From positions 138,063 to 202,062 of IMG/VR virus record IMGVR_UViG_3300037454_000941: a DNA stretch of 64,000 nucleotides, one strand, 5' to 3'. A model generated the notes under the pieces. It made no database searches. It saw nothing but the letters and a program-made list of their open reading frames with translations, and was not told where the DNA came from. The number at the start of each line of letters is the position of its first letter. Position 1 is the first letter of the stretch. This stretch comes from a virus (Duplodnaviria > Heunggongvirae > Uroviricota > Caudoviricetes). A program made the position numbers and the translations under genes. Positions 601-45,628 of this stretch are shown in pieces.

Positions 601-966
601 TTATCCTTTCCCAAGAGATGCAATGACCTCATCTTCCAGCTGACTAATAGCAACTATGTCCTCGTGCTCAATGATGCGACCGGCACACAGATGAACTTCA
701 AACATCGAACTCATGCTATATCCCTTGTACCGTTCCGGGTGATTTTGCGAATCCAGCTTTGCCATTATGCCCACGGCGCAGCGATATGCTTCATTGTGCT
801 CTTCGCCAAAATGCTCTGCACAATAATCAACGAACTCACGGCATTCGTTGACCAAGTGCGATGCAATGTTCATCGCATTTTTGTCTTTCATAAGACGATT
901 ATATATCTGCGACCGTACTTCTGACTTAAATGCAGCTGATGCCATATTCATATCTCCTTTAGGCAA
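601..966 (-). CDS. hypothetical protein
   Basis: 121-aa ORF directly downstream of the recombinase gene on the same strand. Confidence 0.4.
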   Translation of the reverse strand: MPKGDMNMASAAFKSEVRSQIYNRLMKDKNAMNIASHLVNECREFVDYCAEHFGEEHNEAYRCAVGIMAKLDSQNHPERYKGYSMSSMFEVHLCAGRIIEHEDIVAISQLEDEVIASLGKG

Positions 967-1600
967 CGCCTATCTGTTTGAGTTCCTTCATCTTCAGCTT
1001 GTTTTCCTTGCTCCGCTTTCCGTACAGCTTGGCGGAGAACACCATAATGATTGACAGGATGTCCTTCACCAGGTCAGACTCGAACGATGTGCCGAGTACG
1101 GTGTCGAGGTATTCAACCTGCACACCATGCGACTCGAAGTATTCGACAAGGAACTCATAGTTGAACCTGGTGAGGCGGTCACACCGTTCGATGACCAGCT
1201 TACTGAACTTGTGCTCCCTAGCCAGTTTCATCAGCTTTCGGAGTTTCTTGCGCTTGTCGTTCATGCCGGAGCCAACTTCGTCCATGATATAGTCTACCCG
1301 ATAATGCTGGGTAGCGCAGTATTCCAACAGTCGCAACTTCTGTCGTTCAAGGTCACCATGCGACTTCTGGTCTGCCGATGATACTCTACAGTAGACCGCA
1401 ACGCCGAGGTCACTGGTTGTTTCCTCCTTGGCAATGCCTTGGTAGGCATCCAGTGCATCGGTATCATACCGGCGATGGCCACCTTTTTCCTTACGGATTG
1501 GCTTCAACCGACCTTCCTCGTCCCAACGGCGCAAGGTGCTCTTGGAAACGCCCAGTATCTCACTTGCCTTGCTGATGCTGACTTTCTTCCCCATCGTCAA
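959..1600 (-). CDS. serine recombinase (resolvase/invertase family) with N-terminal MerR-type HTH; IS607 TnpA-like
   Basis: 213 aa; N-terminal HTH (ISKASEILGVSKSTLRRW) followed by a YCRVSSADQ catalytic-serine motif typical of small serine recombinases. Confidence 0.7.
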   Translation of the reverse strand: MTMGKKVSISKASEILGVSKSTLRRWDEEGRLKPIRKEKGGHRRYDTDALDAYQGIAKEETTSDLGVAVYCRVSSADQKSHGDLERQKLRLLEYCATQHYRVDYIMDEVGSGMNDKRKKLRKLMKLAREHKFSKLVIERCDRLTRFNYEFLVEYFESHGVQVEYLDTVLGTSFESDLVKDILSIIMVFSAKLYGKRSKENKLKMKELKQIGVA

Positions 1601-2895: not shown

Positions 2896-3570
2896 ATGAA
2901 TTATACTAGAATTTATGCAAGCATTGTATTGCGTGCTCAGTCTGAACGAACTGAACGGTTAGCCTTGAAAAAGCAAGGTAAGTATTTTGAAGACCATCAT
3001 ATTGTACCTCGGTCGTTGGGTGGTCGTGATGTTATTCAAAATATGGCATTATTAACTGGAAGAGAGCATTTCATATGTCACTGGTTATTGGTTAAAATAT
3101 ATCCAGTAAATAGTGATGAACGTGAGAAGATGTTGTATGCGCTGTGGCGAATGTCGACTAAAAATGAGTTTCACGTAGGTCGATATGTAAATTCGCATAT
3201 ATATGAATACTATAGAACTGAATTTGCTAAGCAAGTAAGCCAACGGATTTCATCTGTACAAACTGGAGAAAATAACTCTCAATATGGTACGCACTGGTAT
3301 ACTAACTGTTATACTGGTGAGACGATACGAACGCGGGACCAATTGATATATCCGTGGTATAAAGGCAAAAATTTGTTTCGTGGCGAGAGTCGTAAAATAA
3401 AATATTGGAATGCCAGTACACCATATAGGCACTCCGTTGCAAAGCGTAATCAAACCAGAAAGCGAATTCGTAAAGACGTTCACGGTAACTCATATATCGA
3501 ACGCACGTCTTTTGAAATTATGCAAGAATCAATATGCAAGGCAAAAAGATGGTGGGACGACAACAGATAA
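2896..3570 (+). CDS. HNH homing endonuclease
   Basis: 224 aa; HNH motif FEDHHIVPRSLGGRD...N...H; sits in an AT-rich island between mobile-element genes. Confidence 0.8.
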   Translation: MNYTRIYASIVLRAQSERTERLALKKQGKYFEDHHIVPRSLGGRDVIQNMALLTGREHFICHWLLVKIYPVNSDEREKMLYALWRMSTKNEFHVGRYVNSHIYEYYRTEFAKQVSQRISSVQTGENNSQYGTHWYTNCYTGETIRTRDQLIYPWYKGKNLFRGESRKIKYWNASTPYRHSVAKRNQTRKRIRKDVHGNSYIERTSFEIMQESICKAKRWWDDNR

Positions 3571-3791: not shown

Positions 3792-5183
3792 ATGGAACAG
3801 CATTGTGGAAGAAAGATATGCTTGAAACCGAGCAAGGCACAGGTACGGACGATGTACCGTATGTGTGCCGTTTCCCGCCGTGCCTACAACTGGAAACTGG
3901 CAGAACAGAACAAGGCTTACGAGGAGGCCAAGGCCAATACGCCGGAAGGCGAGAAGGTCAAGTGTACCCTTGGGACGCCGAGGGACTGGCATAAGGAATG
4001 GTGCATCTACAAGAAGCTCCCCGACAACAAGTGGATGACGGAAGTCTCCAAGTTCTGTGGCCAGGAGGCTTTAATCGACCTAGGCTCCGCATGGAAGCGG
4101 TTCTTCAAGGGTTTAGCCAAGCATCCCCGCTTCCACCGCTACAATCAGGACAATTCGTTCCGCTGCTCCGGTGGCGTATTCATTGGTCGAGATTTCGTCC
4201 AGCTTCCTACCCTCGGCAGAGTTAAGCTCCGTGAGAAGGACTATATAAAGATACCGAAGGATTCCGAGAAGATACCGCTTGCAATGGCGACGGTATCGGT
4301 CGATGCTGCTGGCAAGTGGTATGTATCATTCGCCTATGTAGCCGACATCGTTCCAGTCCACGAATCCATATCCTCGTTCGAGGAACAGGACATCGTAGGT
4401 GTCGATTTCGGTGTCAAGTACTTGGCAATCACGAGCGACGGTATCGTTTATGCCAATCCGAAAGCCTACCGTCATGCAAAGGCTAGGCTCCGCCGTGCCC
4501 AACGGGCACTATCCCGCAAGAAGAAACACTCCAAGAATAGGGAGCGCTGCCGTAGGCTGTTGGCTAGAATACATCGACGTATAACCAATATCCGTGTCAA
4601 TGCGGCACACCAGCTTACAGCTGACCTTACGAAGCACACCAAGCCGAAGGCCATCGTCCTAGAGGACTTGAAGCCGAAGAACATGTCCAAGAACCATAAA
4701 TTGGCTTCGGCTATCCTCGATGCCAACTTCGGTAGGATGAGACAGTTCCTCGAATACAAGTGTGCTTGGCTAGGCATCTTACTGTTCTTCGCACCGCAGT
4801 TCTATGCATCATCAAGATATTGCTCCCACTGCGGGCAATACTACAACACGGATTTGACCCTGGATGACAGGGAATGGGTATGCCCGGTATGTGGGCATAA
4901 GCATGATAGAGATTACAATGCAGCCAGGAACCTACAGTTCTATGGCCTGTGGCTACTAAACCTAGTAGTCCCGACTAATGACAATGCGGTGAGATACACC
5001 GTAAGTGGAGAAGTTCCCACGAATGCTTGCCCCCACGGCAACGCCCAGTGCGTTACCTATCGGGAAGGTATGGTTTACACCAACCCCAGAGACATGAGGT
5101 TGCAGTTCTTTGAAACACAAGAGCAGTGCATGGCGATGAAGCAAGAAATCACCAATACATATTTAATTGGTAAAAATGTGTAG
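3792..5183 (+). CDS. tnpB: IS605/IS1341-type transposase accessory protein TnpB (RuvC-like nuclease with Zn finger)
   Basis: 463 aa; OrfB/TnpB architecture: central GVDFGVKYLAITSDG RuvC motif, C-terminal CxxC...CxxC zinc finger, NAARN. Confidence 0.9.
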   Translation: MEQHCGRKICLKPSKAQVRTMYRMCAVSRRAYNWKLAEQNKAYEEAKANTPEGEKVKCTLGTPRDWHKEWCIYKKLPDNKWMTEVSKFCGQEALIDLGSAWKRFFKGLAKHPRFHRYNQDNSFRCSGGVFIGRDFVQLPTLGRVKLREKDYIKIPKDSEKIPLAMATVSVDAAGKWYVSFAYVADIVPVHESISSFEEQDIVGVDFGVKYLAITSDGIVYANPKAYRHAKARLRRAQRALSRKKKHSKNRERCRRLLARIHRRITNIRVNAAHQLTADLTKHTKPKAIVLEDLKPKNMSKNHKLASAILDANFGRMRQFLEYKCAWLGILLFFAPQFYASSRYCSHCGQYYNTDLTLDDREWVCPVCGHKHDRDYNAARNLQFYGLWLLNLVVPTNDNAVRYTVSGEVPTNACPHGNAQCVTYREGMVYTNPRDMRLQFFETQEQCMAMKQEITNTYLIGKNV

Positions 5184-5383
5184 AAATGATTTATCGGATG
5201 CGTTTCATGCCGGAAATTATAAAAACTTAGCAGAATTCGGACAAAATGTGAATCGAAGCAAAACATCTATATATCAATTGTTTAATTCATATATACCAGC
5301 ATTTAGTAGTGACCGAACTCATAGGCGCAGGCGTTTTTGTTCTAATATTGATTTGGTTGGTCAGTATGAATAATTAAATTTTT

Positions 5384-5455
5384 GCCCGTATAGCTTAACT
5401 GGAAGAGCCTCGGACTACGAATCCGACTATCGAGATTCGACTTCTCGTACGGGTA
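5384..5455 (+). tRNA. tRNA-Arg (anticodon ACG)
   Basis: hand-folded cloverleaf; acceptor GCCCGTA/TACGGGT, anticodon loop CTACGAA; no encoded CCA. Confidence 0.65.
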
Positions 5456-5463
5456 TTACTTTT

Positions 5464-5537
5464 GGCCTTGTCGACCACGTTGGCTAAGTCACCACCCTTT
5501 CACGGTGGAGAATCCGGATCGACACCGGACAAGGCTA
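5464..5537 (+). tRNA. tRNA-Glu (TTC)
   Basis: acceptor GGCCTTG/CAAGGCT, AC stem CCACC/GGTGG loop CTTTCAC, unusual T-loop ATCGACA. Confidence 0.6.
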
Positions 5538-5541
5538 CTAT

Positions 5542-5615
5542 ATTCGTCTAGCTCAATTGGTTAGAGTACCTGGCTGATATCCAGGCGGTTTCAAGTTCAA
5601 GTCTTGAGGCGAATA
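5542..5615 (+). tRNA. tRNA-Ile (GAT)
   Basis: AC stem CCTGG/CCAGG loop CTGATAT; T-arm TTGAGG... TTCAAGT. Confidence 0.65.
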
Positions 5616-5624
5616 CTAAATTAT

Positions 5625-5700
5625 GCACCATTAGCTCAGTTGGTTCTAGAGCAGTTGCCTCTTAAGCATCGGGTCCAAAGTTCAAGTCTTTGATGGTGCA
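5625..5700 (+). tRNA. tRNA-Lys (CTT)
   Basis: acceptor GCACCAT/ATGGTGC, AC loop CTCTTAA (one stem mismatch). Confidence 0.55.
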
Positions 5701-5712
5701 CTAACAAATTAT

Positions 5713-5788
5713 TGCGGTGTAGCTCAGTCCGGTTCAGAGCAGCGGAATCATAATCCGTTGGTCGAAGGTTCAAATCCTTCTTCCGCAA
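5713..5788 (+). tRNA. tRNA-Met/Ile2 (CAT)
   Basis: AC stem GCGGA/TCCGT loop ATCATAA; T-loop TTCAAAT. Confidence 0.6.
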
Positions 5789-5795
5789 CTATTGT

Positions 5796-5869
5796 GGGGC
5801 CATCGTCTAGTTGGCTAGGACACCAGCCTGTCACGCTGGAAATCACGGGTTCGAACCCCGTTGGTCCCG
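5796..5869 (+). tRNA. tRNA-Asp (GTC)
   Basis: acceptor GGGGCCA/TGGTCCC, AC loop CTGTCAC, T-loop TTCGAAC. Confidence 0.65.
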
Positions 5870-5873
5870 TTAC

Positions 5874-5946
5874 ACTCGGTTAGCTCAGTAGGGAGAGCGC
5901 CTGTTTTACACACAGATTGTCGGCAGTTCGATCCTGTCATCGAGTA
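5874..5946 (+). tRNA. tRNA-Val (TAC)
   Basis: AC loop TTTACAC, T-loop TTCGATC. Confidence 0.6.
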
Positions 5947-5950
5947 CTAT

Positions 5951-6022
5951 AGGGATTTAGGACAGTGGCTAGTCTAGCGCTCTCCAAAAGCGTCTACGGG
6001 AGTTCGAATCTCTCAGTCCCTG
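5951..6022 (+). tRNA. tRNA-Trp (CCA)
   Basis: acceptor AGGGATT/AGTCCCT, AC stem GCGCT/AGCGT loop CTCCAAA, T-loop TTCGAAT. Confidence 0.65.
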
Positions 6023-6029
6023 CTATCTT

Positions 6030-6106
6030 ATTCCACGGTCGGCAAGTGGTATGCCAGCGTGCTGTTAACGCGCCAGATTTTCGGTGGTTCGAGTCCCGGC
6101 AGAGCT
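6030..6106 (+). tRNA. tRNA-like, possibly Asn (GTT), irregular T-arm
   Basis: D-arm GGCA-AGTGGTA-TGCC, AC stem GCGTG/CGCGC loop CTGTTAA, GGTTCGAGTCC present but acceptor/T-stem pairing not resolved. Confidence 0.35.
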
Positions 6107-6113
6107 ACTAAGT

Positions 6114-6201
6114 AACGAGAACGAGATTGCGAGAAACCCGATGGTGACTCAGTTAGTGAGTATCTTGGCGGTTCTAAACCGCCCGCCATCTCGCTCTCGT
6201 T
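6114..6201. ncRNA. atypical cloverleaf-like element (three hairpins inside a 14-bp stem), not a canonical tRNA
   Basis: AACGAGAACGAGAT...ATCTCGCTCTCGTT long stem enclosing hairpins ACTCA-GTTAG-TGAGT and GGCGG-TTCTAAA-CCGCC; no T-arm on either strand. Confidence 0.4.
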
Positions 6202-6209
6202 ACAACATC

Positions 6210-6283
6210 CCCGCAGTAGTGTTAATTGGTTAGCACGCATGCTTGTGGCGCATGAAGTTCGGGTTCGAATCTCGGCTATGGGA
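6210..6283 (+). tRNA. tRNA-His (GTG)
   Basis: AC stem CATGC/GCATG loop TTGTGGC, T-loop TTCGAAT. Confidence 0.55.
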
Positions 6284-6305
6284 CTAACGAAGATAAATAA
6301 ATATG

Positions 6306-6422
6306 GGCTTCAAAGACAGTCGGGTTCTGTGTGACAAGAGACTGAATTTCTCAGCAAGTCTTCAACTGAGTCGATACTACTGAGACTCAAGCGCACGGGT
6401 CTGGTTCGAATCCAGGGAGGTC
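6306..6422 (+). tRNA. tRNA-like, over-long (about 117 nt), possibly interrupted
   Basis: canonical 3' half (TCTGG-TTCGAAT-CCAGG, acceptor GAGGTCC) but the only complementary 5' acceptor (GGGCTTC) is 117 nt upstream; internal hairpins with 11-nt loops. Confidence 0.3.
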
Positions 6423-6435
6423 CACTACTTTTTAA

Positions 6436-6509
6436 TCCACTTCAGTTCAATTGGTAGAACACACGCCTGTTAAGCGTTGAGGTTCTTGGTCCGAATCCAA
6501 GAGGTGGAG
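6436..6509 (+). tRNA. tRNA-Asn (GTT)
   Basis: acceptor TCCACTT/AGGTGGA, AC loop CTGTTAA, T-loop TCCGAAT. Confidence 0.6.
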
Positions 6510-6519
6510 CTATTTTTAT

Positions 6520-6603
6520 GCCGGTGCGCCGACGATGGCGAGTCGGGGGAGACTGTAAATCTCCTGCCTTCGGGCTTAGGGCGTTCGAATCGCTCCACCG
6601 GCA
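6520..6603 (+). tRNA. tRNA-Tyr (GTA), class II
   Basis: acceptor GCCGGTG/CACCGGC, AC stem GGAGA/TCTCC loop CTGTAAA, long variable arm, T-loop TTCGAAT. Confidence 0.7.
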
Positions 6604-6613
6604 CTAAAATTAT

Positions 6614-6686
6614 TCCACCTTAGCTCAGTAGGTAGAGCGGGCGACTGTTAATCGCCTGGTCCCACGTTCGAGTCGTGGAGGTGGAG
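6614..6686 (+). tRNA. tRNA-Asn (GTT), paralog of the gene at 6436
   Basis: acceptor TCCACCT/AGGTGGA, AC stem GGCGA/TCGCC loop CTGTTAA, T-loop TTCGAGT. Confidence 0.65.
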
Positions 6687-6693
6687 CTAATAT

Positions 6694-6769
6694 TGCCGAT
6701 TAGCCAAGCGGTAAGGCGCCGCGCTCTGAACGCGGGATTCTTTCGGTGGTTCGATCCCATCATCGGCAA
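6694..6769 (+). tRNA. tRNA-Gln (CTG)
   Basis: acceptor TGCCGAT/ATCGGCA, AC stem CCGCG/CGCGG loop CTCTGAA. Confidence 0.65.
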
Positions 6770-6779
6770 CTATTTATAT

Positions 6780-6850
6780 GCACCTATGTTGTAGTGGTAG
6801 CAAAACGCATTGCCTGTGCGTGAGCTCCGGTTCGAATCCGGATAGGTGCT
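6780..6850 (+). tRNA. tRNA-Gly (GCC)
   Basis: acceptor GCACCTA/TAGGTGC, AC stem ACGCA/TGCGT loop TTGCCTG, T-loop TTCGAAT. Confidence 0.6.
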
Positions 6851-6854
6851 CTAT

Positions 6855-6942
6855 CTCGATGTGATGGAACTGGTAGACATAACAGGTTGAGAGCCTGTGG
6901 CATATACAAACGTGCATGGCAGTCCGACTCTGCCCATCGAGA
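6855..6942 (+). tRNA. tRNA-Leu (GAG), class II
   Basis: acceptor CTCGATG/CATCGAG, AC stem ACAGG/CCTGT loop TTGAGAG, long variable arm. Confidence 0.65.
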
Positions 6943-6954
6943 CTAAACAACTTG

Positions 6955-7042
6955 CTCCCCGTGATGGAATGGGCATACATATGGGACTTAAAATCCCACG
7001 CGAAGAATAAATCGCATACCGGTTCGATGCCGGTCGGGGAGA
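6955..7042 (+). tRNA. tRNA-Leu (TAA), class II
   Basis: acceptor CTCCCCG/CGGGGAG, AC stem TGGGA/TCCCA loop CTTAAAA, T-arm ACCGG-TTCGATG-CCGGT. Confidence 0.65.
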
Positions 7043-7120
7043 CTATAGGAGAATCGAACATGAAGAAACTTAAATTGAAACGATTATAAAGGTGGCAGCT
7101 GCCTATCAGCTGTGATTTAT

Positions 7121-7213
7121 GCGGGTATAACTCAGCTGGTAGTGCGTTTTACGCCAAGAGTACGCGACTTTTAATCGCGGAGTCGGAATTGGGTTCGAAT
7201 CCCCCTACCCGCA
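7121..7213 (+). tRNA. tRNA-Lys (TTT) with about 15-nt insertion in the D-loop
   Basis: acceptor GCGGGTA/TACCCGC, AC stem CGCGA/TCGCG loop CTTTTAA; D-region carries extra TGCGTTTTACGCCAA. Confidence 0.5.
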
Positions 7214-7217
7214 CTAT

Positions 7218-7288
7218 GCATCATTGAGGTAATGGTAGCCCTGCAGAATTCCACTCTGCCTGTACGAGTTCGAGTCTCGTATGATGCT
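7218..7288 (+). tRNA. tRNA-Gly (TCC)
   Basis: acceptor GCATCAT/ATGATGC, AC stem GCAGA/TCTGC loop ATTCCAC. Confidence 0.6.
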
Positions 7289-7297
7289 CTATTTTAT

Positions 7298-7382
7298 CGC
7301 TCTGTGGCGGAATTGGCGATACGCGGCGCACTCAAAATGCGCTGTCCGAAAGGGCATGTGGGTTCGACTCCCACTTGAGCGA
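7298..7382 (+). tRNA. tRNA-Leu (CAA), class II
   Basis: AC stem GCGCA/TGCGC loop CTCAAAA, variable arm, T-loop TTCGACT. Confidence 0.6.
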
Positions 7383-7391
7383 CTAATCTAT

Positions 7392-7475
7392 CGGCATGTG
7401 GAGTAACTGGTAGCCTCGTCAGATTCAGGTTCTGATGGCCGCAAGGTCGTGAGGGTTCGATTCCCTCTGTGCCGA
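7392..7475 (+). tRNA. tRNA-Leu (CAG), class II
   Basis: acceptor CGGCATG/TGTGCCG, AC stem TCAGA/TCTGA loop TTCAGGT, T-loop TTCGATT. Confidence 0.55.
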
Positions 7476-7481
7476 CTATTT

Positions 7482-7553
7482 GGCCCTTTAGACCAGCGGT
7501 TAAGTCACGGGATTCTCAATCCCGGCACCCGAGTTCGAGCCTCGGAGGGGCTA
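7482..7553 (+). tRNA. tRNA-Glu (CTC)
   Basis: AC stem CGGGA/TCCCG loop TTCTCAA, T-loop TTCGAGC. Confidence 0.6.
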
Positions 7554-7557
7554 CTAT

Positions 7558-7631
7558 TGAGCCTTGGTGCAATTTGGTAGCACGCAAGATTTTGAGTCTT
7601 GATGTTGTTGGTTCGAGTCCAGCCGGCTCAA
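7558..7631 (+). tRNA. tRNA-Gln (TTG)
   Basis: AC stem CAAGA/TCTTG loop TTTTGAG, T-loop TTCGAGT. Confidence 0.6.
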
Positions 7632-7634
7632 TTA

Positions 7635-7724
7635 CCCGAGGTGGTGGAATTGGTAGACACCCCGGACTTAGGATCCGGCGCTGTATTCGCATGCAGCATG
7701 CAGGTTCGACGCCTGTCTTCGGGA
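7635..7724 (+). tRNA. tRNA-Leu (TAG), class II
   Basis: acceptor CCCGAGG/CTTCGGG, AC stem CCGGA/TCCGG loop CTTAGGA, long variable arm. Confidence 0.65.
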
Positions 7725-7739
7725 CTAACGGATTTTTAT

Positions 7740-7812
7740 GCACCCTTAGCCAAGCCTGGTAAGGCATGTGGTTGCAACCCACCGACCGGCGGTTCGAATC
7801 CGTCAGGGTGCT
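7740..7812 (+). tRNA. tRNA-Cys (GCA)
   Basis: acceptor GCACCCT/AGGGTGC, AC stem TGTGG/CCACC loop TTGCAAC, T-loop TTCGAAT. Confidence 0.7.
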
Positions 7813-7821
7813 CTAACTTTT

Positions 7822-7892
7822 ATCGCACTGATGTAATGGTAGCATGACTGTCTCCAAAACAGTTCGTAGGGGTCCGAATCCTTTGTGCGGTG
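7822..7892 (+). tRNA. tRNA-Trp (CCA), second copy
   Basis: AC stem ACTGT/ACAGT loop CTCCAAA, T-loop TCCGAAT. Confidence 0.55.
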
Positions 7893-7907
7893 TTATTTTT
7901 TCTTTAT

Positions 7908-7980
7908 GGGGCTCTGGCAGAGTTGGTCAATGCGCTGGACTGAAAATCCGGAGATTGGGGTTCGAATCCCCGGGGCCCCA
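7908..7980 (+). tRNA. tRNA-Phe (GAA)
   Basis: acceptor GGGGCTC/GGGCCCC, AC stem CTGGA/TCCGG loop CTGAAAA, T-loop TTCGAAT. Confidence 0.6.
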
Positions 7981-7986
7981 CTATTT

Positions 7987-8078
7987 GGAAGTGTCCCATA
8001 ATTGGTTATTGGCCCTCCTTGGAAAGGAGCGTGGTGGGGTAAATTCCCTGCATGGAGGTTCGAGCCCTCCCATTTCCG
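7987..8078 (+). tRNA. tRNA-Ser (GGA), class II
   Basis: acceptor GGAAGTG/CATTTCC, AC loop TTGGAAA, long variable arm, T-loop TTCGAGC. Confidence 0.65.
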
Positions 8079-8085
8079 CGAATTT

Positions 8086-8172
8086 GGAAGCGTAGACCTA
8101 ATTGGTAAGGCCCCCGGCTCGAACCCGGTGGTGAGGAAGTTCCTCATGTAGGTTCAAGTCCTGCCGCTTCCG
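8086..8172 (+). tRNA. tRNA-Ser (CGA), class II
   Basis: acceptor GGAAGCG/CGCTTCC, AC loop CTCGAAC, T-loop TTCAAGT. Confidence 0.65.
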
Positions 8173-8176
8173 CTAT

Positions 8177-8260
8177 GGAAGCGCACGAGATTGGTGACTC
8201 AAGCGGACTTGAAATCCGTGGTTCCGCAAGGGCTTGGGGGTTCGAATCCCTCCGCTTCCG
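8177..8260 (+). tRNA. tRNA-Ser (TGA), class II
   Basis: acceptor GGAAGCG/CGCTTCC, AC stem GCGGA/TCCGT loop CTTGAAA, T-loop TTCGAAT. Confidence 0.65.
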
Positions 8261-8266
8261 CGAAAT

Positions 8267-8339
8267 CAGTGTGTAGCTCAGCCGGTAGAGCGCATGCTTC
8301 GGGAGCATGAGGTCGGTGGATCGTTCCCACCCACGCTGA
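8267..8339 (+). tRNA. tRNA-Pro (CGG)
   Basis: AC stem CATGC/GCATG loop TTCGGGA. Confidence 0.6.
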
Positions 8340-8343
8340 CTAT

Positions 8344-8416
8344 TCCGACATAGCTCAATTGGCAGAGCAGTTCATTAGTAATGAACCGGTTACTCGTTCG
8401 ATGCGAGTTGTCGGAG
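8344..8416 (+). tRNA. tRNA-Thr (AGT)
   Basis: acceptor TCCGACA/TGTCGGA, AC stem GTTCA/TGAAC loop TTAGTAA; A34 anticodon is unusual for bacteria. Confidence 0.55.
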
Positions 8417-8422
8417 CTATTT

Positions 8423-8511
8423 GGAGAGGTAGCCTAATTGGTAAGGCAGGAGAGTGCTAATCTCCCGTGGCCCTCAAAAGCTGCTTGCAGGTTCAATCCC
8501 TGTCCTCTCCG
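8423..8511 (+). tRNA. tRNA-Ser (GCT), class II
   Basis: acceptor GGAGAGG/CCTCTCC, AC stem GGAGA/TCTCC loop GTGCTAA, T-loop TTCAATC. Confidence 0.65.
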
Positions 8512-8518
8512 CTATTAT

Positions 8519-8593
8519 GTTGAAGGTAGCTCAACTGGTAGAGTTCTGGCTTGTGACGCCAGAGGTTGCCGGATCATACCCGGTCCTTCAACC
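8519..8593 (+). tRNA. tRNA-His (GTG)-like, divergent T-loop
   Basis: acceptor GTTGAAG/CTTCAAC, AC stem CTGGC/GCCAG loop TTGTGAC, T-loop ATCATAC. Confidence 0.45.
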
Positions 8594-8640
8594 TATTAGT
8601 CATCCGAAATGTCGCGCTATTACCCAACAAAGGATACATT

Positions 8641-8970
8641 ATGGTGACCGTAGCCCAGATCAACGAATTGCGCAAGGCGACCCAAGTGAGCATGCTTCTT
8701 TGCAAGCAGGCTCTCGAAGCGACCGGCGGCGACTTCGATGCCGCCAGGGAATGGCTCCGAGGCCAGGGTCGCGAGGTCGCCGGGGAGGCCGGCGTGTTCG
8801 GGGTCACCCTGTTCGCTGACGGTGCAACGACCGGTTCCGAGGTGACATCGGGTTACGTGTACAATGACGGCCATACAGCAATCGACATCCGCGGATTCAG
8901 TGGAACCACCCCCACTTGCGTATGGGGCGATTTGAGACACCAAGTAATTTTGCGTCCTGCGAAAAATTGA
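8641..8970 (+). CDS. small protein with elongation factor Ts N-terminal (UBA-like) domain
   Basis: N-terminus VTVAQINELRKATQVSMLLCKQALEATGGDFDAAREWLRGQG matches the EF-Ts N-domain pattern (LRxxTGxxMxxCKKALxExxGDxExAxExLR); start preceded by AAAGGATACATT; embedded in tRNA array. Confidence 0.55.
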   Translation: MVTVAQINELRKATQVSMLLCKQALEATGGDFDAAREWLRGQGREVAGEAGVFGVTLFADGATTGSEVTSGYVYNDGHTAIDIRGFSGTTPTCVWGDLRHQVILRPAKN

Positions 8971-8975
8971 TCTTC

Positions 8976-9051
8976 GCCGGCGTAGCTCAATGGACTTTAG
9001 AGCAAGTGGCTTCTAACCACTAGGTTGCCAGTTCGACTCTGGCCGTCGGTA
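8976..9051 (+). tRNA. tRNA-Arg (TCT)
   Basis: AC stem AGTGG/CCACT loop CTTCTAA, T-loop TTCGACT. Confidence 0.6.
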
Positions 9052-9157
9052 TTTTTGTTATTAAAATGTTGGCAATGTTGACAAACTTTGAAAATAATGC
9101 TATATTATCGGCATCGGACAAGATGTCCATTATTAACAACCAACAAAAGGATACAAA

Positions 9158-9403
9158 ATGACAAAGACCACTGTTGCGTCTGCTCCCAAGATTACCGCCG
9201 CTGCGACCAAGTGCGTGTGTGACAAGGACACCAAGAAGCTCGTCGCCGAAAAGGCAAAGCTCGAAAAGGCCCTCGCCTCCGCCAACGCCAAGGCCGCGAA
9301 GGCTGCCAAGGTTTCCGCTGACAAGCTCGCCAAGGCCCAGGCAATGATCTCCAAGCTGAAGGGCACCGTGGCTGCCCTCAAGGCCGCCAAGAAGGCAAAG
9401 TAA
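9158..9403 (+). CDS. Ala/Lys-rich histone H1-like DNA-binding protein
   Basis: 81 aa, low-complexity AKKAAK repeats; same AAAGGATACA..ATG start context as the 8641 gene. Confidence 0.5.
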   Translation: MTKTTVASAPKITAAATKCVCDKDTKKLVAEKAKLEKALASANAKAAKAAKVSADKLAKAQAMISKLKGTVAALKAAKKAK

Positions 9404-9429
9404 TCCAAATTACTTTTGTTTACATCAGG

Positions 9430-9460
9430 CAACCGGGCGACCGGTTGCCATTGTTGTTTT
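9430..9460 (+). terminator. putative terminator hairpin
   Basis: CAACCGG-GCGA-CCGGTTG followed by a T-rich run. Confidence 0.4.
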
Positions 9461-9462
9461 CG

Positions 9463-9476
9463 GTTGCTATATTTTT
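9463..9476 (+). promoter_or_regulatory. extended -10 promoter motif (GTTGCTATATTTTT)
   Basis: recurrent motif 5 nt upstream of ATG 9481. Confidence 0.5.
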
Positions 9477-9480
9477 AAGC

Positions 9481-10455
9481 ATGAGAAAGATTACCACTAC
9501 ACATACTGGAATTATCGTGTCGGACACCGACATGGAACTGGAATACCTTTACGTGGGCGACTACGGCAAGGAAAACAATATCAAAGCTGATTTCCTGGGT
9601 TACACCAAGAAAATCAAAAAGGTAGAACATCGTCCGGTGGATATTACTGACAAGTTGGTTGTCACGGTATCTACACAGAAGGGATGCTTGGAAAAGTGCA
9701 AGTTTTGTGACTGTCCCAAGTATGGGTTCAAGGGGAACGTGCCGTATTTTCAACTCATGTCCGAGATTATAAATGGAGTGGCATTGTCCAAGATACAGCA
9801 GGGTCAACGTCTTAACGTGCATTTTGCCAGAATGGGTGAACCGACCTGGAATCCTGATGTAATCTCTGTAGCCCGTGACATCGGAACTATAATGAATGGT
9901 GCGCAGAAGTTTATCGAGTATCATCCGGTGGTATCGACCATGCTTCCGAAAAATAACAAGAAGCTTATTCAGTTCCTGCATGCCTGGTGTGAACTAGGAA
10001 ACATGAACTTGTGGAACGGCGGTATCGGCCTCCAATTCTCCATCAACACCCTGGATGAAGCCGACCGTAATGACATGTTCAACAATTGCTCCCTTTCACT
10101 TGCGGAAATTTCAGAAATCGGGAAGCAGCTCCCGATGCCGACGGGACGAAAGTATACACTGAACTTTGCAGTGACCGGTAAGTGCAATTTGGATCCGGAA
10201 ATAATGGGAAGGTATTTTGACAAGGATAAGTTTCTTGTCAAGATCACACCTATCCATGCGACCGAGGAAGCTATCAAGAACGATTTTGCAACTGAATTTG
10301 ACTTCGATGTGTACGAGAAGTTCGAACGTCCTCTGGTCGAGGCTGGGTGGGACGTAATCGTGTTCATCCCGTCATTTGAAGAGGATTCTGACAGGATTAC
10401 ATGTGGTAACTCGCTGATTGCGCTGGGGGCTGCCGATGAAGGTTCTGCTGGTTAA
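9481..10455 (+). CDS. radical SAM enzyme, RlmN/Cfr-like RNA methyltransferase family
   Basis: STQKGCLEKCKFCDC (compare RlmN SSQVGCALECKFCST), RMGEPTWN, C-terminal ITCGNS resembling the RlmN catalytic Cys region. Confidence 0.7.
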   Translation: MRKITTTHTGIIVSDTDMELEYLYVGDYGKENNIKADFLGYTKKIKKVEHRPVDITDKLVVTVSTQKGCLEKCKFCDCPKYGFKGNVPYFQLMSEIINGVALSKIQQGQRLNVHFARMGEPTWNPDVISVARDIGTIMNGAQKFIEYHPVVSTMLPKNNKKLIQFLHAWCELGNMNLWNGGIGLQFSINTLDEADRNDMFNNCSLSLAEISEIGKQLPMPTGRKYTLNFAVTGKCNLDPEIMGRYFDKDKFLVKITPIHATEEAIKNDFATEFDFDVYEKFERPLVEAGWDVIVFIPSFEEDSDRITCGNSLIALGAADEGSAG

Positions 10456-11071
10456 TGGAAGTCCAAGGCAGCATGGGTGTACCGAGCGTGCGCTCATTGA
10501 AGTGCGTGATGCGCTTTCCGGTCTATGTGATGATACCGAACTGATATGGCTGGGTACTCAGGTTTCCTGCTGTACCAACTGCAGGTGTTGCAAGGGTACA
10601 GATGCAACCCGACGGTGCGTCGAGGGCGGCATAGTGAACAAGTTTCTTGATATGCTACCGGGCACTGATGCGGTGGTGTTCGGTTCACCGGTGTATTACG
10701 GTGGCCTAAGTGGCCAGATGGTTAACTTTCTCACTTGGTGCTTCTATTCGTCCCCGAAATCGTTCGTGGGAAAATATGTGGCGGGTATAACTAGCTCACG
10801 CAGGGCCGGTGGGCCGTCGGCGTTGGCATCTTTCAACCAGTTTTTCCTGATGCATAGCATGGTGGTCGTGGGGAGCCAATATTGGAACGAGGTCCATGGG
10901 GATAACCCGGAAGAACTAAAATATGATGTCGAGGGAATGCAGTCGATGCGCAGGCTGGCATACAATATCCACAATGCTGTCCACGGCACTAATGTGGAGT
11001 TCCCGGAAAAGCATATTCACACCAATTTCATTAGCAGGGAATTTTTAAAATTGCAAGAGGAAGGAAAATGA
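10436..11071 (+). CDS. flavodoxin-like NAD(P)H-dependent FMN reductase / iron-sulfur flavoprotein
   Basis: MKVLLVNGSPRQHGCTERAL N-terminus typical of the NADPH-dependent FMN reductase family; overlaps radical SAM gene end. Confidence 0.7.
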   Translation: MKVLLVNGSPRQHGCTERALIEVRDALSGLCDDTELIWLGTQVSCCTNCRCCKGTDATRRCVEGGIVNKFLDMLPGTDAVVFGSPVYYGGLSGQMVNFLTWCFYSSPKSFVGKYVAGITSSRRAGGPSALASFNQFFLMHSMVVVGSQYWNEVHGDNPEELKYDVEGMQSMRRLAYNIHNAVHGTNVEFPEKHIHTNFISREFLKLQEEGK

Positions 11072-11778
11072 AAATCGACATACTCACTGGAAATATCGGT
11101 TCCGGCAAGAGCACCGTGGCCGAAGAGCTCCGCAATATGGGCATCCCGGTCATCAGTGCGGACTGCATGATGAAGGACATCTACCGCAATGACCCGAATA
11201 TTCGCGGCACAGTGACGGCGATTTGGGGTCCCGAGGCCCTGGATCCGGTCATCGGGCTGGGGGAGAAGGTGCGCAATGCGGCCCTCGATGACCCGTCGGT
11301 CTATGAATATCTCACGCGCATCCTCCATTATCCAATGTATGCGAACCTGTGCCAGATTTTACGTGCGCTGGAGATGCTGAGGCCGAAAGTGACCCATGCG
11401 GTAATCGAGTCGGCCACTATCGCCGAATGGATGTTTGCCTGGATAAACCCGGGCATCAAGGTCGGACACACATTCAGGGTGTCCACTTCTAACAAGGATG
11501 CACGCATTGACCGTGTGGTTGAACGGTACAAGAAGCGATTCAGCCTGCATACTGAACGTACGGGTTTCCCCCAATATCCGGAGGAAGTCTACGAAGGGAA
11601 CCGCAAGGTCCTCGCCAAGTATAGGGAGATGGTCATCCGCACGGACGATCTGCAGAACCATGTCAATGCGAAGTGGGAAGGTGATGACCGTATCGGAACG
11701 GTGCACGATTTCCTGAATGACAGCGAGAATGACCCGCTGAGCATCGCATGCAGCATCCGGGATTGTCTTATCGGCTAG
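11068..11778 (+). CDS. P-loop kinase, dephospho-CoA kinase (CoaE)-like; possible nucleotide kinase
   Basis: MKIDILTGNIGSGKSTVAEEL...VISADCMMKD matches CoaE N-terminal Walker A block. Confidence 0.65.
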   Translation: MKIDILTGNIGSGKSTVAEELRNMGIPVISADCMMKDIYRNDPNIRGTVTAIWGPEALDPVIGLGEKVRNAALDDPSVYEYLTRILHYPMYANLCQILRALEMLRPKVTHAVIESATIAEWMFAWINPGIKVGHTFRVSTSNKDARIDRVVERYKKRFSLHTERTGFPQYPEEVYEGNRKVLAKYREMVIRTDDLQNHVNAKWEGDDRIGTVHDFLNDSENDPLSIACSIRDCLIG

Positions 11779-11834
11779 TGTAAACATACGTTAACATTGA
11801 TGGGAATCCGGCACAGGTGCCAAAACATGACACC

Positions 11835-11846
11835 TTTGCTATATTT
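11835..11846 (+). promoter_or_regulatory. extended -10 promoter motif (TTTGCTATATTT)
   Basis: 5 nt upstream of ATG 11852. Confidence 0.55.
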
Positions 11847-11851
11847 AGAAC

Positions 11852-13012
11852 ATGATGGACAAAAAGAAGACAAATGCCAATAAGACTGTGCGACTCAGCC
11901 ACGTTACGGAATTCCGCCCCGAGAAGCCGGTGATGTTTGATCCTCCCAAGTTGATGTTTGTTTGGGACGAAGATGACGTTGTGGAAGGCGACAATGGAGC
12001 GGCCCCGTATTTTGCCAGCGTGATCTACGTTAACCCGCGGATGGTCGGGCATGGCGTTCTCGCAGAGGGTGACGGGGCTTCTGCCAAGAATTTCGGCACA
12101 ACGTGGGACCATTGCGCCCTTATTGAAGAATGTAACAAGGCGCCAAGTTTCGGTTCCACGCTGGGCAAGCGTGATAATTCTGATCCCCGCTACCGGTCAA
12201 TCGACCACATTCCGCTTGCGGTTTATGAATATCTGCAAAGCAGTGACGCTTGCCATGTATCTCATGATGAAATTGTCACCCATCGAGAACTGTCCCAATG
12301 GGTTGGCGAGGGAAAGGGTGAGGTCCTTTACTGCAAGCGTGGCGAGAGCGACGTGTTCCCGCAGTACAGCAATTCGTTCAAGTACAGGGCCGAACGGGAG
12401 AACCTGCCCGTCGTGTGGGCGCGTACCGTATGCGGGGAAGATCTCTACGTCATGGTCAGGAAGTATGGCGACAAGCAACCGTCCCACCCGACCTACAAGT
12501 ACATGGGCCTGGCTGCCGAGGAAACTCCCGATATCATGCCGGTACCCGAGAAAAAGATGGCCACCCTGTCCAACGTGGTCTACTGGATTTGTGACCGCAT
12601 CAGGCCACTCGGGTTCAGTGTCGCCTACGGTGACAGCGAGGTTCTGATTCAAGGGACTGCGGAATGTAACGACAAGAGCCTCAATCTGTGTCCGATGCTA
12701 TGCGAATTCCTGCCCAAGGTAGCTAATGGTACAATGGAGCTCACTGACCGCGAGTACATCCCGCAAGAAGATGATACGGGTGTCCTTGTATACAATCCGT
12801 CCATGGACATGGACACCTACATCAGGACAATGGACCGGATTTTCTTCATCGAGCATTTGATTGTCAGGATGACCGGTCTCGGTAAGGAAAATTTGGGGAA
12901 ATACAGGTTCCCCGTGGAAATCGCGGATTCGCTGTGCAAGGCGTTCCCGTACCTGCGTGAGCACTACCATGAACTGATCCGTACCCCGGACTGGAACGAT
13001 TACACAAAATGA
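11852..13012 (+). CDS. hypothetical protein
   Basis: 386-aa ORF immediately after promoter motif. Confidence 0.65.
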   Translation: MMDKKKTNANKTVRLSHVTEFRPEKPVMFDPPKLMFVWDEDDVVEGDNGAAPYFASVIYVNPRMVGHGVLAEGDGASAKNFGTTWDHCALIEECNKAPSFGSTLGKRDNSDPRYRSIDHIPLAVYEYLQSSDACHVSHDEIVTHRELSQWVGEGKGEVLYCKRGESDVFPQYSNSFKYRAERENLPVVWARTVCGEDLYVMVRKYGDKQPSHPTYKYMGLAAEETPDIMPVPEKKMATLSNVVYWICDRIRPLGFSVAYGDSEVLIQGTAECNDKSLNLCPMLCEFLPKVANGTMELTDREYIPQEDDTGVLVYNPSMDMDTYIRTMDRIFFIEHLIVRMTGLGKENLGKYRFPVEIADSLCKAFPYLREHYHELIRTPDWNDYTK

Positions 13013-16338: not shown

Positions 16339-16977
16339 GTGGATGGAACAATGATTGGAAATGAAGAGCAGCACTATCCGATATTACCCGGAATGGAACT
16401 CCCGCACAATATCAAGGTGGAGGTTCACAAGGGCGAACTCGAACACCTGAGACAGACCATTTCTGACTTCGGGCATATAGTCGAGGAGAACGATCGTCTT
16501 AGGGAAAAGGTCGCCTCCTTGCAACGCCAGATTGCCACGGGCACTCCATGGAACCCGTGGATCCCGGTCGAGGACAACCCGCCGAAGGTTTCTGATGGGT
16601 TGTTCTATATCATGTGGGAGGATGGGTGCTTAGATACCGGTCTCGTGGCACCGAGCACTGGAGAAATTGTTCCACAGACGCCCAGGTCGCTCTATGAACT
16701 GACCGGTGACGAGGGACATTCGATTGAATGGTGGATGCCCGCGCCACCGCGTCCCGAAAAGATATCGCCACCGGCTGAAATGCCTACAAAAACTCCGGAA
16801 AAGGCATATGTGGTTGTCTTGAAGATGATGGACTCATGGTGCCTTGTTGGAAAGAAGGTTTTCACAAAATTCGAGGATGCCGAGAGGTTCCGTTTGCGGG
16901 CACAGGAAAAGACTCAGAAAATACTGGATACGGAAGAGGTCAAGCTCCTGGATAGTTACACCCCGCCACAGAAATGA
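16339..16977 (+). CDS. hypothetical protein
   Basis: 212-aa ORF. Confidence 0.6.
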   Translation: MDGTMIGNEEQHYPILPGMELPHNIKVEVHKGELEHLRQTISDFGHIVEENDRLREKVASLQRQIATGTPWNPWIPVEDNPPKVSDGLFYIMWEDGCLDTGLVAPSTGEIVPQTPRSLYELTGDEGHSIEWWMPAPPRPEKISPPAEMPTKTPEKAYVVVLKMMDSWCLVGKKVFTKFEDAERFRLRAQEKTQKILDTEEVKLLDSYTPPQK

Positions 16978-16983
16978 GCATGC

Positions 16984-17010
16984 AGGTTGCCGCAAGGCAA
17001 CCTTTTTGCT
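16984..17010 (+). terminator. Rho-independent terminator overlapping next promoter
   Basis: GGTTGCC-GCAA-GGCAACC + TTTTT. Confidence 0.55.
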
Positions 17011-17016
17011 ACATTT
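17005..17016 (+). promoter_or_regulatory. extended -10 promoter motif (TTTGCTACATTT)
   Basis: 5 nt upstream of ATG 17022. Confidence 0.55.
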
Positions 17017-17021
17017 GGGAC

Positions 17022-18598: not shown

Positions 18599-18613
18599 TT
18601 GCCGAAACGACCG

Positions 18614-20290: not shown

Positions 20291-20303
20291 TTTGCTATAT
20301 TTT
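20291..20303 (+). promoter_or_regulatory. extended -10 promoter motif (TTTGCTATATTTT)
   Basis: 4 nt upstream of ATG 20308. Confidence 0.55.
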
Positions 20304-20307
20304 GAAC

Positions 20308-24351: not shown

Positions 24352-24633
24352 ATGGAAACGATTTACCTTGACAAGAAACACCGCGCAAAGAAAGATGGGT
24401 TTGTCTGGATTCCCCAGTGGAAGGGCCTGTTCTTCTGGCATCCGTACACCCTGTGGACTGCCGACACGTGGATGGGGGATGTCGTCATGTACAGCAAGAG
24501 GGCGACCCCGCCGTCATTCGACACCGGGGAGAACGCCATCAGGTTCATCGAGCGAGTGCTTGCTACAGGGAAGGACAGGGTTTTCCACCTTGATGATGAG
24601 AACGAATATTTACCTGGATTAAGGAGCTGGTAA
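24352..24633 (+). CDS. hypothetical protein
   Basis: ATG 24352 in-frame with track ORF 24304..24633. Confidence 0.45.
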   Translation: METIYLDKKHRAKKDGFVWIPQWKGLFFWHPYTLWTADTWMGDVVMYSKRATPPSFDTGENAIRFIERVLATGKDRVFHLDDENEYLPGLRSW

Positions 24634-32793: not shown

Positions 32794-32868
32794 GCGGGAG
32801 TAGCTCAGTTGGTAGAGCGCGGCATTCCCATTGCCGAGATTTCGAGGGTTCGAGTCCCTTCTCCCGCT
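32794..32868 (+). tRNA. tRNA-Gly (CCC)
   Basis: acceptor GCGGGAG/CTCCCGC, AC stem CGGCA/TGCCG loop TTCCCAT, T-loop TTCGAGT. Confidence 0.65.
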
Positions 32869-32887
32869 CGAATACGTGGAGATAACT

Positions 32888-45460: not shown

Positions 45461-45552
45461 CTGGTAAGCGCCGGGAGCCGTCGGACGGACAACTCGAGTA
45501 AGGTCGCCCGCTCCTCCCGGCGCCGGGACAGTCAGCACATGTCCCACCCCCT

Positions 45553-45624
45553 AGCCCTCGGGTGTGACTGGTAGCATCGCAGACTCCAAATCTGCAGGAT
45601 GGCGTTCGAAGCGTCAGGGGGCTG
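45553..45624 (+). tRNA. tRNA-Trp (CCA)-like, third copy
   Basis: acceptor AGCCCTC/GGGGGCT, AC stem GCAGA/TCTGC loop CTCCAAA, T-loop TTCGAAG. Confidence 0.45.
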
Positions 45625-45628
45625 TTAC

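Follow-up and report, generated by a model that had tools for sequence, protein, structure and literature searches.

Phages with genomes above 200 kb, the jumbo phages, can carry tens of tRNA genes, up to 67, together with a transfer-messenger RNA (tmRNA), a CCA-adding enzyme and genes of the elongation factor Ts (EF-Ts) type (Al-Shayeb et al. 2020, PMC7162821). Jumbo phages from the animal gut have a mean of 23 tRNAs, one of them has 68 that cover all amino acids, and many encode NAD+ synthesis genes (PMC11662467); another jumbo phage survey gives up to 70 tRNAs (PMC13037316). Large tRNA sets that codon bias does not explain are also found in T5 and other phages, where they have been proposed or shown to replace tRNAs cleaved by defence systems (PMC10264068, PMC11464382, PMC11555353). 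The present analysis concerns a 64-kb stretch of viral DNA (positions 138,063 to 202,062 of the IMG/VR record IMGVR_UViG_3300037454_000941, hereafter the window), which holds two dense tRNA arrays, scattered tRNA genes and several genes for tRNA maintenance. In phage T4, the tRNA cluster is tightly spaced and co-transcribed, and several of its genes lack CCA and depend on RNase BN/Z trimming followed by CCA addition. T4 has 8 tRNAs and uses the CCA enzyme of the host.

We consider, with a probability of about 0.68, that the window belongs to a jumbo phage of ~200-250 kb from the ruminant or animal gut, of which it forms the accessory (host-takeover) region, and that its tRNA genes make up a nearly complete replacement tRNA pool. 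Such a pool would keep the translation of phage mRNA running late in infection, when the tRNA supply of the host is no longer renewed or is destroyed. It would serve independently of codon bias, while the ribosomes, aminoacyl-tRNA synthetases and factors would still be those of the host. What the sequence shows are the genes, the conservation of their structure, the lack of encoded CCA and the families and folds of the proteins; from these we infer how the set would be processed and expressed, which partners its proteins would bind and what selective benefit it would bring.

The tRNA and tmRNA genes were called with ARAGORN and independently checked with the covariance models of Rfam, whose tRNA model RF00005 has a gathering threshold of 29 bits. 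ARAGORN yields 53 tRNA genes and one tmRNA, every one on the + strand, with 33 tRNAs in array A, 13 in array B and seven scattered. The dense arrays, the 13 genes of the second one and the seven scattered genes had all been proposed beforehand from the letters alone (the sequence-only reading) and are borne out. The gathering score is passed by 44 of the 53 calls and by one further gene at 7121-7213 (39-71 bits), and the call at 6955 (Leu-UAA) reaches 46 bits under laxer filters. The genes are distributed as follows.

5383-9051, + strand: tRNA array A, with 33 canonical tRNAs and tRNA-Lys(UUU) at 7121-7213, spacers of 2-14 nt and a T run at the end
45552-46630, + strand: tRNA array B, with 13 tRNA genes and a T run at the end (ARAGORN and Rfam)
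32794-32869, + strand: isolated tRNA-Gly(CCC) (ARAGORN; Rfam 62 bits)
51468-51543, + strand: tRNA-Pro(UGG) (ARAGORN and Rfam)
53811-57074, + strand: scattered tRNAs, namely Thr-UGU (53811), CAU (54185), CAU (54451), Thr-CGU (56920) and Arg-CCU (57001)

The total is 57 tRNA genes, made up of the 53 canonical ones, the tRNA-Lys(UUU) with an insertion in its D loop and three unusual tRNA-Ala genes that are treated below. Together they provide 39 anticodons and cover all 20 amino acids. The sequence-only reading had counted about 40 tRNAs in array A, which is too many: there are 34 usable genes (33 from ARAGORN and the Lys gene seen by Rfam alone) plus degenerate elements. The three Trp-CCA, two Asp and two Pro-CGG genes and the class II Leu, Ser and Tyr tRNAs that it listed are all present. 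Two of its three Asn-GTT genes are intact; the third is a remnant at 6029-6108 that scores 17 bits and lacks the 3′ acceptor strand. Relaxing ARAGORN through lower thresholds, permitted introns or the mitochondrial mode produced further calls in the array gaps (Ser-ACT, a minus-strand Ala-GGC with a 75-nt intron, and a mitochondrial-type Leu). They were inconsistent across settings and were rejected as spurious.

Several single genes deviate from their counterparts. The tRNA-Lys(UUU) at 7121-7213 is missed by ARAGORN and scores 43 bits in Rfam; an 18-nt hairpin (GCGTTTTACGC) is inserted in its D loop. Its orthologues in the related loci L082, L091 and L094 are canonical, and a second, canonical tRNA-Lys(UUU) is located in the window at 46083. 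The two tRNA-His genes differ in type and are 59% identical. The gene at 8520-8593 has G at position -1 and C73, which is the bacterial identity set, and the gene at 6210-6284 has C at -1 and A73. The CAU tRNAs are candidates for the initiator, the elongator and tRNA-Ile2; a 1:72 mismatch occurs in the gene at 54185 alone.

The structure of the tRNAs is maintained in spite of strong sequence divergence. Each gene of array A was compared with its same-anticodon counterparts in the relatives L081 and L082. Among the stem pairs that differ, pairing is kept by changes on both sides in 235, a change on one side preserves a wobble pair in 50, and 76 are broken, part of the latter being alignment slips between very divergent copies. 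Because the compensatory changes (235) exceed the disruptions (76), the array tRNAs are judged to be functional genes under structural selection and not decaying ones. Same-anticodon paralogues within the window are 58-83% identical and are therefore not recent duplications. The anticodon order of array A is kept in L081 (7173-10413) and L082 (554-4769), and the identity of the orthologues forms a mosaic from 49% to 100%, in which some tRNAs are 97-100% identical and their neighbors 50-65%. Since identical genes adjoin ones of ~60% identity, the mosaic suggests that single tRNA cassettes were replaced one by one with the anticodon order retained.

The sequence-only reading had essentially all amino acids covered by the tRNAs that it listed. 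All 20 are indeed represented in the window, but tRNA-Ala lies in none of the intervals named there. Three non-canonical tRNA-Ala genes are instead situated upstream of array A, where they were found by alignment to the Ala genes of L081 and L082. Two further genes are inserted between this trio and array A.

2466-2538, + strand: non-canonical tRNA-Ala with anticodon GGC
2598-2670, + strand: non-canonical tRNA-Ala with anticodon CGC
2681-2752, + strand: non-canonical tRNA-Ala with anticodon UGC
2896-3570, + strand: open reading frame (ORF) of an HNH endonuclease
3792-5183, + strand: gene of a TnpB RNA-guided nuclease

The trio is missed by ARAGORN and by the Rfam tRNA model alike. The array of L081 and L082 opens with canonical tRNA-Ala genes, three or four in number, directly followed by tRNA-Arg(ACG). 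The window genes keep G1-G2-G3:U70 and A73, which make up the alanine identity set, and have 7-nt anticodon loops on 6-bp stems. They have the D region CAUGUUCC(AA/UU)GG(A/U)GGCGA in common, whose stem consists of the pairs U.G, G:C, U.G and U.G. Across eight members of this Ala family, 98.9% of the alignment cells in stems are paired and both partners have changed in 15 of 22 pairs, a level that shuffled sequences and slid registers come nowhere near. The trio also occurs in the relatives L138 (a 334.6-kb contig), L145 and L139, and the distance of the Ala genes to tRNA-Arg(ACG) in relatives is 0-0.9 kb. As judged from sequence, the window genes are genuine tRNAs and make up an unusual sub-type.

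An 18-mer from the D region of the trio occurs in six IMG/VR contigs and 63 metagenome stretches. These hold 39 distinct tRNA-like genes: ~30 Ala (G3:U70, A73), five Trp-CCA and one with a UCA anticodon. Only 12 of the 39 are detected by ARAGORN. The sub-type, seen in the trio and in L097-L165, is characterized by an invariant D region (CAUGUUCCAAGGAGGCGA), a 6-bp anticodon stem and a variable loop of 3-4 nt, and it is spread over contigs from very different metagenomes. Two other interpretations were considered. One of the Ala-like genes scores 19.6 bits with the Rfam tmRNA model, and a tmRNA fragment was rejected given the complete Ala anticodon arms and the covarying stems. The AAGGAGG in the odd D loop as a mimic of a Shine-Dalgarno sequence is weakened by the CGC copy, which reads TTGGTGG. 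Standard tRNA finders can thus miss a whole amino acid, here Ala with its unusual D stem, so published statements on the amino-acid coverage of phage tRNA sets are affected.

When every gene is registered on its 7-bp acceptor stem, the discriminator is followed by CTA in 34 of the 53 tRNAs, by TTA in seven, by CGA in five and by CCA in none, in agreement with the earlier statement that no tRNA gene encodes CCA. A C/U-U/G-A trailer is thus present in 46 of the 53 (e.g. 5456-5459, 5539-5541), and the tmRNA trailer is CGA; about one CTA trailer would be expected by chance. The pattern is kept in L081-L084, whose marker protein is 58-75% identical. In L024, a phage array that is more distant, the trailers are rich in T/A. 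Neither array carries the trailer motif after its last gene, which leads into a terminator-like T tract (end regions 9033-9106 and 46613-46640). No promoter-like site was found inside array A on the + strand, and a near-consensus one (TTGACA-17-TATATT, with TG) lies 3′ of the array at 9078-9106.

Both arrays would be transcribed as polycistronic + strand precursors that end at the T runs. Bacterial RNase Z cleaves 3′ of the discriminator, and trailers that start with CC or CCA inhibit it strongly; the enzyme from Bacillus subtilis cleaves such trailers poorly (PMC7479834, which summarizes Pellegrini 2003). A CUA trailer has no CC, so this inhibition would be removed. The precursors may accordingly be cut by RNase P and RNase Z of the host, with the near-universal N73-C-U-A trailer avoiding the CC block, and the 3′ end would then be built by the class II CCA-adding enzyme of the phage. 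CCA addition would be obligatory because no tRNA gene encodes CCA. The same purpose as that of the tRNA pool would be served by the tmRNA through ribosome rescue, by a Pth2-fold hydrolase through recycling of peptidyl-tRNA, and by an EF-Ts N-domain protein that likely docks on EF-Tu. These four features are located as follows.

16974-18257, + strand: class II tRNA nucleotidyltransferase of the predicted CCA-adding type (Pfam PolyA_pol, NCBIfam PRK13299 and PDB matches)
40236-40832, + strand: Pth2-fold peptidyl-tRNA hydrolase-like protein (Pfam, family profile, AlphaFold/Foldseek)
8641-8970, + strand: EF-Ts N-domain mini-protein of 109 amino acids inside array A (sequence and structure match)
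52030-52390, + strand: tmRNA (ARAGORN tag ANDAFACRMAA*; Rfam RF00023 111.7 bits versus 47, model positions 1-374)

The CCA-adding enzyme, placed by the sequence-only reading at 17022-18257, is confirmed at family level for the longer frame 16974-18257. It matches Pfam PolyA_pol (E 6e-29, 101 bits) and NCBIfam PRK13299 (E 1.1e-64), and its best PDB matches are the bacillus-type CCA-adding enzymes 6ibp and 1miv (E 2e-45). Motifs A-E of the head (GGxVRD...DxD, RRD, the nucleotide template EDxxR and ED/LRxxRxxRF) are intact and include GGAVRD, HDVDIAT, EDCARRDFTINAM (EDxxRRDFTINA) and EDSLRIIRGMRFAARF. Homologs are present in 285 GenBank phage records.

The protein at 40236-40832 had been named PTH2-like, and this holds at the level of the fold. 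Pfam PTH2 (PF01981) gives 29.8 bits versus a cut-off of 23, and the PDB matches of its family profile are Pth2 chains only. The AlphaFold model has a predicted local distance difference test score (pLDDT) of 89, and the top 14 Foldseek matches are all Pth2/Bit1 proteins with a probability of 1.00 and TM (template modelling) scores of 0.65-0.74 on the target. The phage protein resembles Pth2/Bit1 (2zv3, 1rlk, 1xty, 1q7s) in its fold, in the motif (V/I)RxDLxxxxGKxxAxxxH and in a D-x-x-x-T motif in the second half; the N-terminal GK...H motif and the invariant D151/T155 are retained. In contrast to these enzymes, it has ~65-70 extra residues, inserted after the first helix and before the remainder of the fold, and stays below the NCBIfam equivalog cut-offs. 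The insertion could change the substrate, and hydrolysis is putative on the basis of the model. More than 1,300 metagenomic proteins belong to this family, many of them on contigs of 100-450 kb.

The mini-protein at 8641-8970 matches residues 4-47 of TIGR00116 (tsf) (E 1.7e-9) as well as EF-Ts chains in the PDB. Its AlphaFold model (pLDDT 85) begins with a three-helix domain that resembles a ubiquitin-associated (UBA) domain. Residues 1-45 superpose on bacterial EF-Ts (1efu, 4pc7, 7vmx) with a root-mean-square deviation (rmsd) of ~0.9-1.1 Å and 33-38% identity; Foldseek gives 0.9 Å over 42 residues for 4pc7_C and a range of 0.9-1.1 Å for 4pc7_C and 2cp9. Residues 53-106 form a beta domain that has no match to EF-Ts or any other PDB entry. 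The family comprises ~25 clusters, all of ~109 residues, in which the N-terminal 45 residues are nearly invariant and the rest is variable, and its members are always embedded in tRNA arrays. The nucleotide-exchange core of E. coli EF-Ts is the Asp80/Phe81 region. Unlike EF-Ts, the mini-protein has neither the core nor the dimerization (exchange) domains and carries a six-strand beta domain in their place. The whole catalytic core is missing, and it is therefore not an EF-Ts or exchange factor; the N domain named in the earlier assignment is confirmed. In EF-Tu:EF-Ts complexes the N-terminal domain contacts the G domain of EF-Tu. The mini-protein shares this contacting domain, although the TGAG of the conserved TGAGMM reads TQVS. 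That it docks on EF-Tu is a reasonable guess from the modelled fold.

The tmRNA of the earlier proposal is borne out by both ARAGORN and Rfam. Its acceptor pairs GGGGGTG with CACCTCC, which results in G3:U70. SmpB was not found among the window ORFs scanned (~50 distinct ones in seven protein family scans), so the tmRNA would have to be served by SmpB of the host.

The links to large phage genomes come from several of these genes. The CCA enzyme is found at 98% identity on a 203-kb IMG/VR contig, which also has a syntenic array. The EF-Ts-like protein is recorded in identical form on contigs that reach 224 kb, with an 88% relative encoded on a 250-kb contig. The anticodon order of the array is conserved in viral-classed contigs of 203-424 kb, and several window proteins match PHROG families. 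Megablast of positions 5000-12000 against GenBank phages gave no close relative, only a tRNA-sized match of 68 nt. Many related contigs belong to an IMG metagenome series that we take to be rumen samples. The CCA enzyme is closest to enzymes from Firmicutes; together with a TnpB match described below, this is a weak hint that the host is probably a member of Clostridia.

Certain results weigh against a complete replacement pool in a jumbo phage. With wobble rules applied strictly, every codon is read by a window tRNA apart from ATA, CCC/CCT, CGG and GTC/GTT, which could be served by tRNAs with a modified U34 or lysidine. The Rfam tRNA model fails to recover eight ARAGORN tRNAs and the Ala trio. 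The eight have complete cloverleaves in the ARAGORN folds, four are class II (Tyr, Leu and two Ser), and a Glu-UUC among them has an unusual T loop. The PRK13299 match of the CCA enzyme reaches 219 bits versus the equivalog cut-off of 290 and covers the N-terminal half only, with a divergent C-terminal half. Poly(A) polymerases match it as well, more weakly, and CCA addition as opposed to A addition or poly(A) synthesis is a prediction and not proven. No phage structural gene (capsid, terminase or other virion gene) was identified within the 64-kb window. The sole host hint is TnpB (3792-5183), which is 67% identical to the TnpB of a Clostridia metagenome-assembled genome from buffalo caecum, on a contig that may itself be viral.

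As to why the set is carried, codon compensation would mean that the tRNAs serve codons that are frequent in the phage and poorly decoded by its host. The third-position GC content of the phage genes (GC3, 0.66 in 47 + strand genes with 11,261 codons) could differ from that of a lower-GC host, and the number of tRNAs in jumbo phages rises with genome size. The set is nearly complete and unselective, however, and tRNA copy number does not follow the codon demand of the phage (Spearman 0.11, p 0.51). The rare codons CTA (4%), TTA (4%) and AGA (5% of Arg codons, with two genes) have tRNAs of their own, and Trp has three. Copy number ignores demand, and rare codons have dedicated, sometimes duplicated tRNAs; such a set is better explained by a complete replacement pool than by selective codon compensation, which we consider unlikely. 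Both general maintenance of translation once the host is shut off and escape from tRNA-cleaving defenses agree with this pattern. The latter as the main driver is a possibility that we hold tentatively: spare or nuclease-resistant tRNAs would replace host tRNAs cut by anticodon nucleases (PrrC/RloC-type, PARIS AriB, retron effectors, bacterial Schlafens), and the CCA enzyme would repair 3′ ends. It overlaps with the replacement pool, being one version of a host pool that is being destroyed. The same-anticodon paralogues, which are divergent isodecoders, speak for it, and a set with one of everything, untuned to codon use, points the same way, as does the odd D arm conserved in phage tRNAs for Ala and Trp across unrelated environments. 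The published cases in T5 and other phages (PMC10264068, PMC11464382, PMC11555353) also speak for it, and so do the neighboring genes for NAD salvage enzymes (PncB and a NadD-Nudix fusion), a PARG-like macrodomain protein and the RNA-repair-associated nucleotidyltransferase RlaP. Against it, no tRNA-targeting defense can be named for the host, the anticodon loops have a canonical appearance and the window holds no RNA ligase/Pnkp repair pair.

The remaining two alternatives are both very improbable. A step toward self-sufficient translation had been the conclusion of the sequence-only reading, which spoke of translational autonomy and a full toolkit. The coverage of 20 amino acids, the tmRNA, the CCA enzyme and the Pth2-like and EF-Ts-like proteins are in its favor, and the tRNA-maintenance genes are real. 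The family scans revealed no aminoacyl-tRNA synthetase, no ribosomal protein and no complete initiation, elongation or release factor among the ~50 ORFs; the claim is thus overstated and, for the window, contradicted, with SmpB and the catalytic core of the EF-Ts-like protein missing too. It is equally improbable that most of the tRNAs are decaying pseudogenes or selfish repeats, or that the array is of bacterial or plasmid origin. A few members are indeed degenerate (the truncated Asn, the Lys with its D-loop insertion and a tRNA-like RNA without anticodon arm), insertion sequence elements occur in and around the arrays, and the window shows neither a capsid nor a terminase gene. Compensatory substitutions dominate, however, with Rfam scores of 39-71 bits, and the array order is kept in the viral-classed contigs of 203-424 kb, next to the PHROG matches.

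Within the preferred replacement pool, the lineage-specific features may jointly form a supply line of tRNAs that the phage controls, and not a passive gene collection, a speculation that we regard as quite improbable as a whole. The N73-CUA trailer would tie every phage tRNA to the CCA-adding enzyme of the phage. The mini-protein, embedded in the array and presumably co-transcribed with it, would dock on EF-Tu of the host and favor phage tRNAs; alternatively, it would protect EF-Tu from abortive-infection systems of the host. The G.U-rich D arm, which phage tRNAs for Ala and Trp share across metagenomes from the rumen, the sea and elsewhere, would be an adaptation that a phage factor recognizes or that escapes a host nuclease.

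Apart from the tRNAs proper, array A contains a block of unusual elements. This gap block of ~560 bp is absent in the relative L081.

6029-6426, + strand: gap block in array A with an Asn remnant, a 93-nt RNA, tRNA-His and a 121-nt tRNA-like RNA
6029-6108, + strand: the truncated Asn-GTT remnant mentioned above
6112-6204, + strand: 93-nt structured RNA closed by a long stem that encloses three hairpins (z-score -6.9)
6210-6284, + strand: tRNA-His within the gap block
6305-6425, + strand: 121-nt tRNA-like RNA with A73, a T arm and an acceptor stem bearing G3:U70, in which a two-hairpin branch replaces the anticodon arm

The 25-nt 3′ part of the RNA at 6305-6425 has no exact match in IMG/VR, and the hairpin of the RNA at 6112-6204 has no match with up to two mismatches among 165 loci. 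Genes of mobile elements are found in and beside the arrays: an IS607-type serine transposase is encoded at 959-1600 (- strand), and a second, divergent TnpB at 55110-56408 (+ strand) is flanked by scattered tRNAs. Another mobile element may have left its trace next to the tmRNA.

51620-51661, + strand: imperfect ~45-nt copy of the tmRNA 5′ end, upstream of HEARO
51662-51890, + strand: HEARO/IscB omega-RNA scaffold (Rfam 121.6 bits versus 83)

The ~140 bp between the HEARO RNA and the tmRNA contain no ORF of IscB size, which leaves the scaffold an orphan. The copy of the tmRNA 5′ end sits where the guide or target of an omega-RNA would be. Taken together, 51620-52390 resembles what would remain of an IscB element whose target was a tmRNA gene.

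The region directly after array A (9445-11071) holds a radical S-adenosylmethionine (SAM) gene followed by a flavodoxin-like flavin mononucleotide reductase; in L090-L094, three consecutive radical-SAM genes occupy this position.

9445-10455: radical-SAM protein of the phage family phrog_24834 of unknown function (2e-90)

An RlmN/Cfr-like RNA methyltransferase had been proposed here, and RlmN proteins are the sole PDB sequence matches, around the CxxxCxxC cluster. The RlmN match amounts to 33 bits versus a cut-off of 290 and aligns residues 64-144 only. RlmN from E. coli has two extra catalytic cysteines, Cys118 and Cys355, of which Cys118 is required by the mechanism. The window protein, in contrast, has Thr at the position of Cys118, its C-terminal Cys is not aligned, and the best match is to phrog_24834, which leaves the RlmN/Cfr label unsupported.

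Farther downstream, 18599-19486, 20302-21654, 24633-25862, 35343-36716 and 46655-47494 encode the PARG-like macrodomain protein, the RlaP nucleotidyltransferase, the NadD-Nudix fusion, PncB and NIF3. PncB (nicotinate phosphoribosyltransferase) lies above the cut-off of TIGR01514. By their predicted families, these neighbors fit a host-takeover or counter-defense region.

Compared to T4, the phage of the window has ~57 tRNAs and its own CCA enzyme. With the evasion described for T5, it differs in that no matching defense and no resistant anticodon-loop variants were identified here. The closest likeness is to the huge and jumbo phages, with which the window shares the large tRNA set, the tmRNA, the CCA-adding enzyme, the EF-Ts-type gene and the NAD genes. 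The set was first described as exceptionally large; it is large, but only relatively so, considering the 67, 68 and 70 tRNAs of published jumbo phages. As these reach 67-70 tRNAs with the same accessory genes, the window is probably a rich but ordinary member of the jumbo phages with expanded translation gene sets. The phenomenon is already established for them, and the main finding leaves the current understanding unchanged. A clean, well-conserved full decoding set that matures via CCA addition is nevertheless useful for testing why giant phages hoard tRNAs, and such material could separate replacement of a collapsing pool, evasion of tRNA-cleaving defenses and codon matching. The differences from huge and jumbo phages are of two kinds. 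Synthetases, ribosomal proteins and full-length factors were not found in the window, and its lineage has the N73-CUA trailer, the Ala trio with a G.U-rich D arm and an array-embedded protein that consists of the EF-Ts N domain without the rest of EF-Ts. In the literature searched, the CUA trailer, the array-embedded EF-Ts N-domain protein and the G.U-rich D-arm sub-type of Ala and Trp tRNAs are not described.

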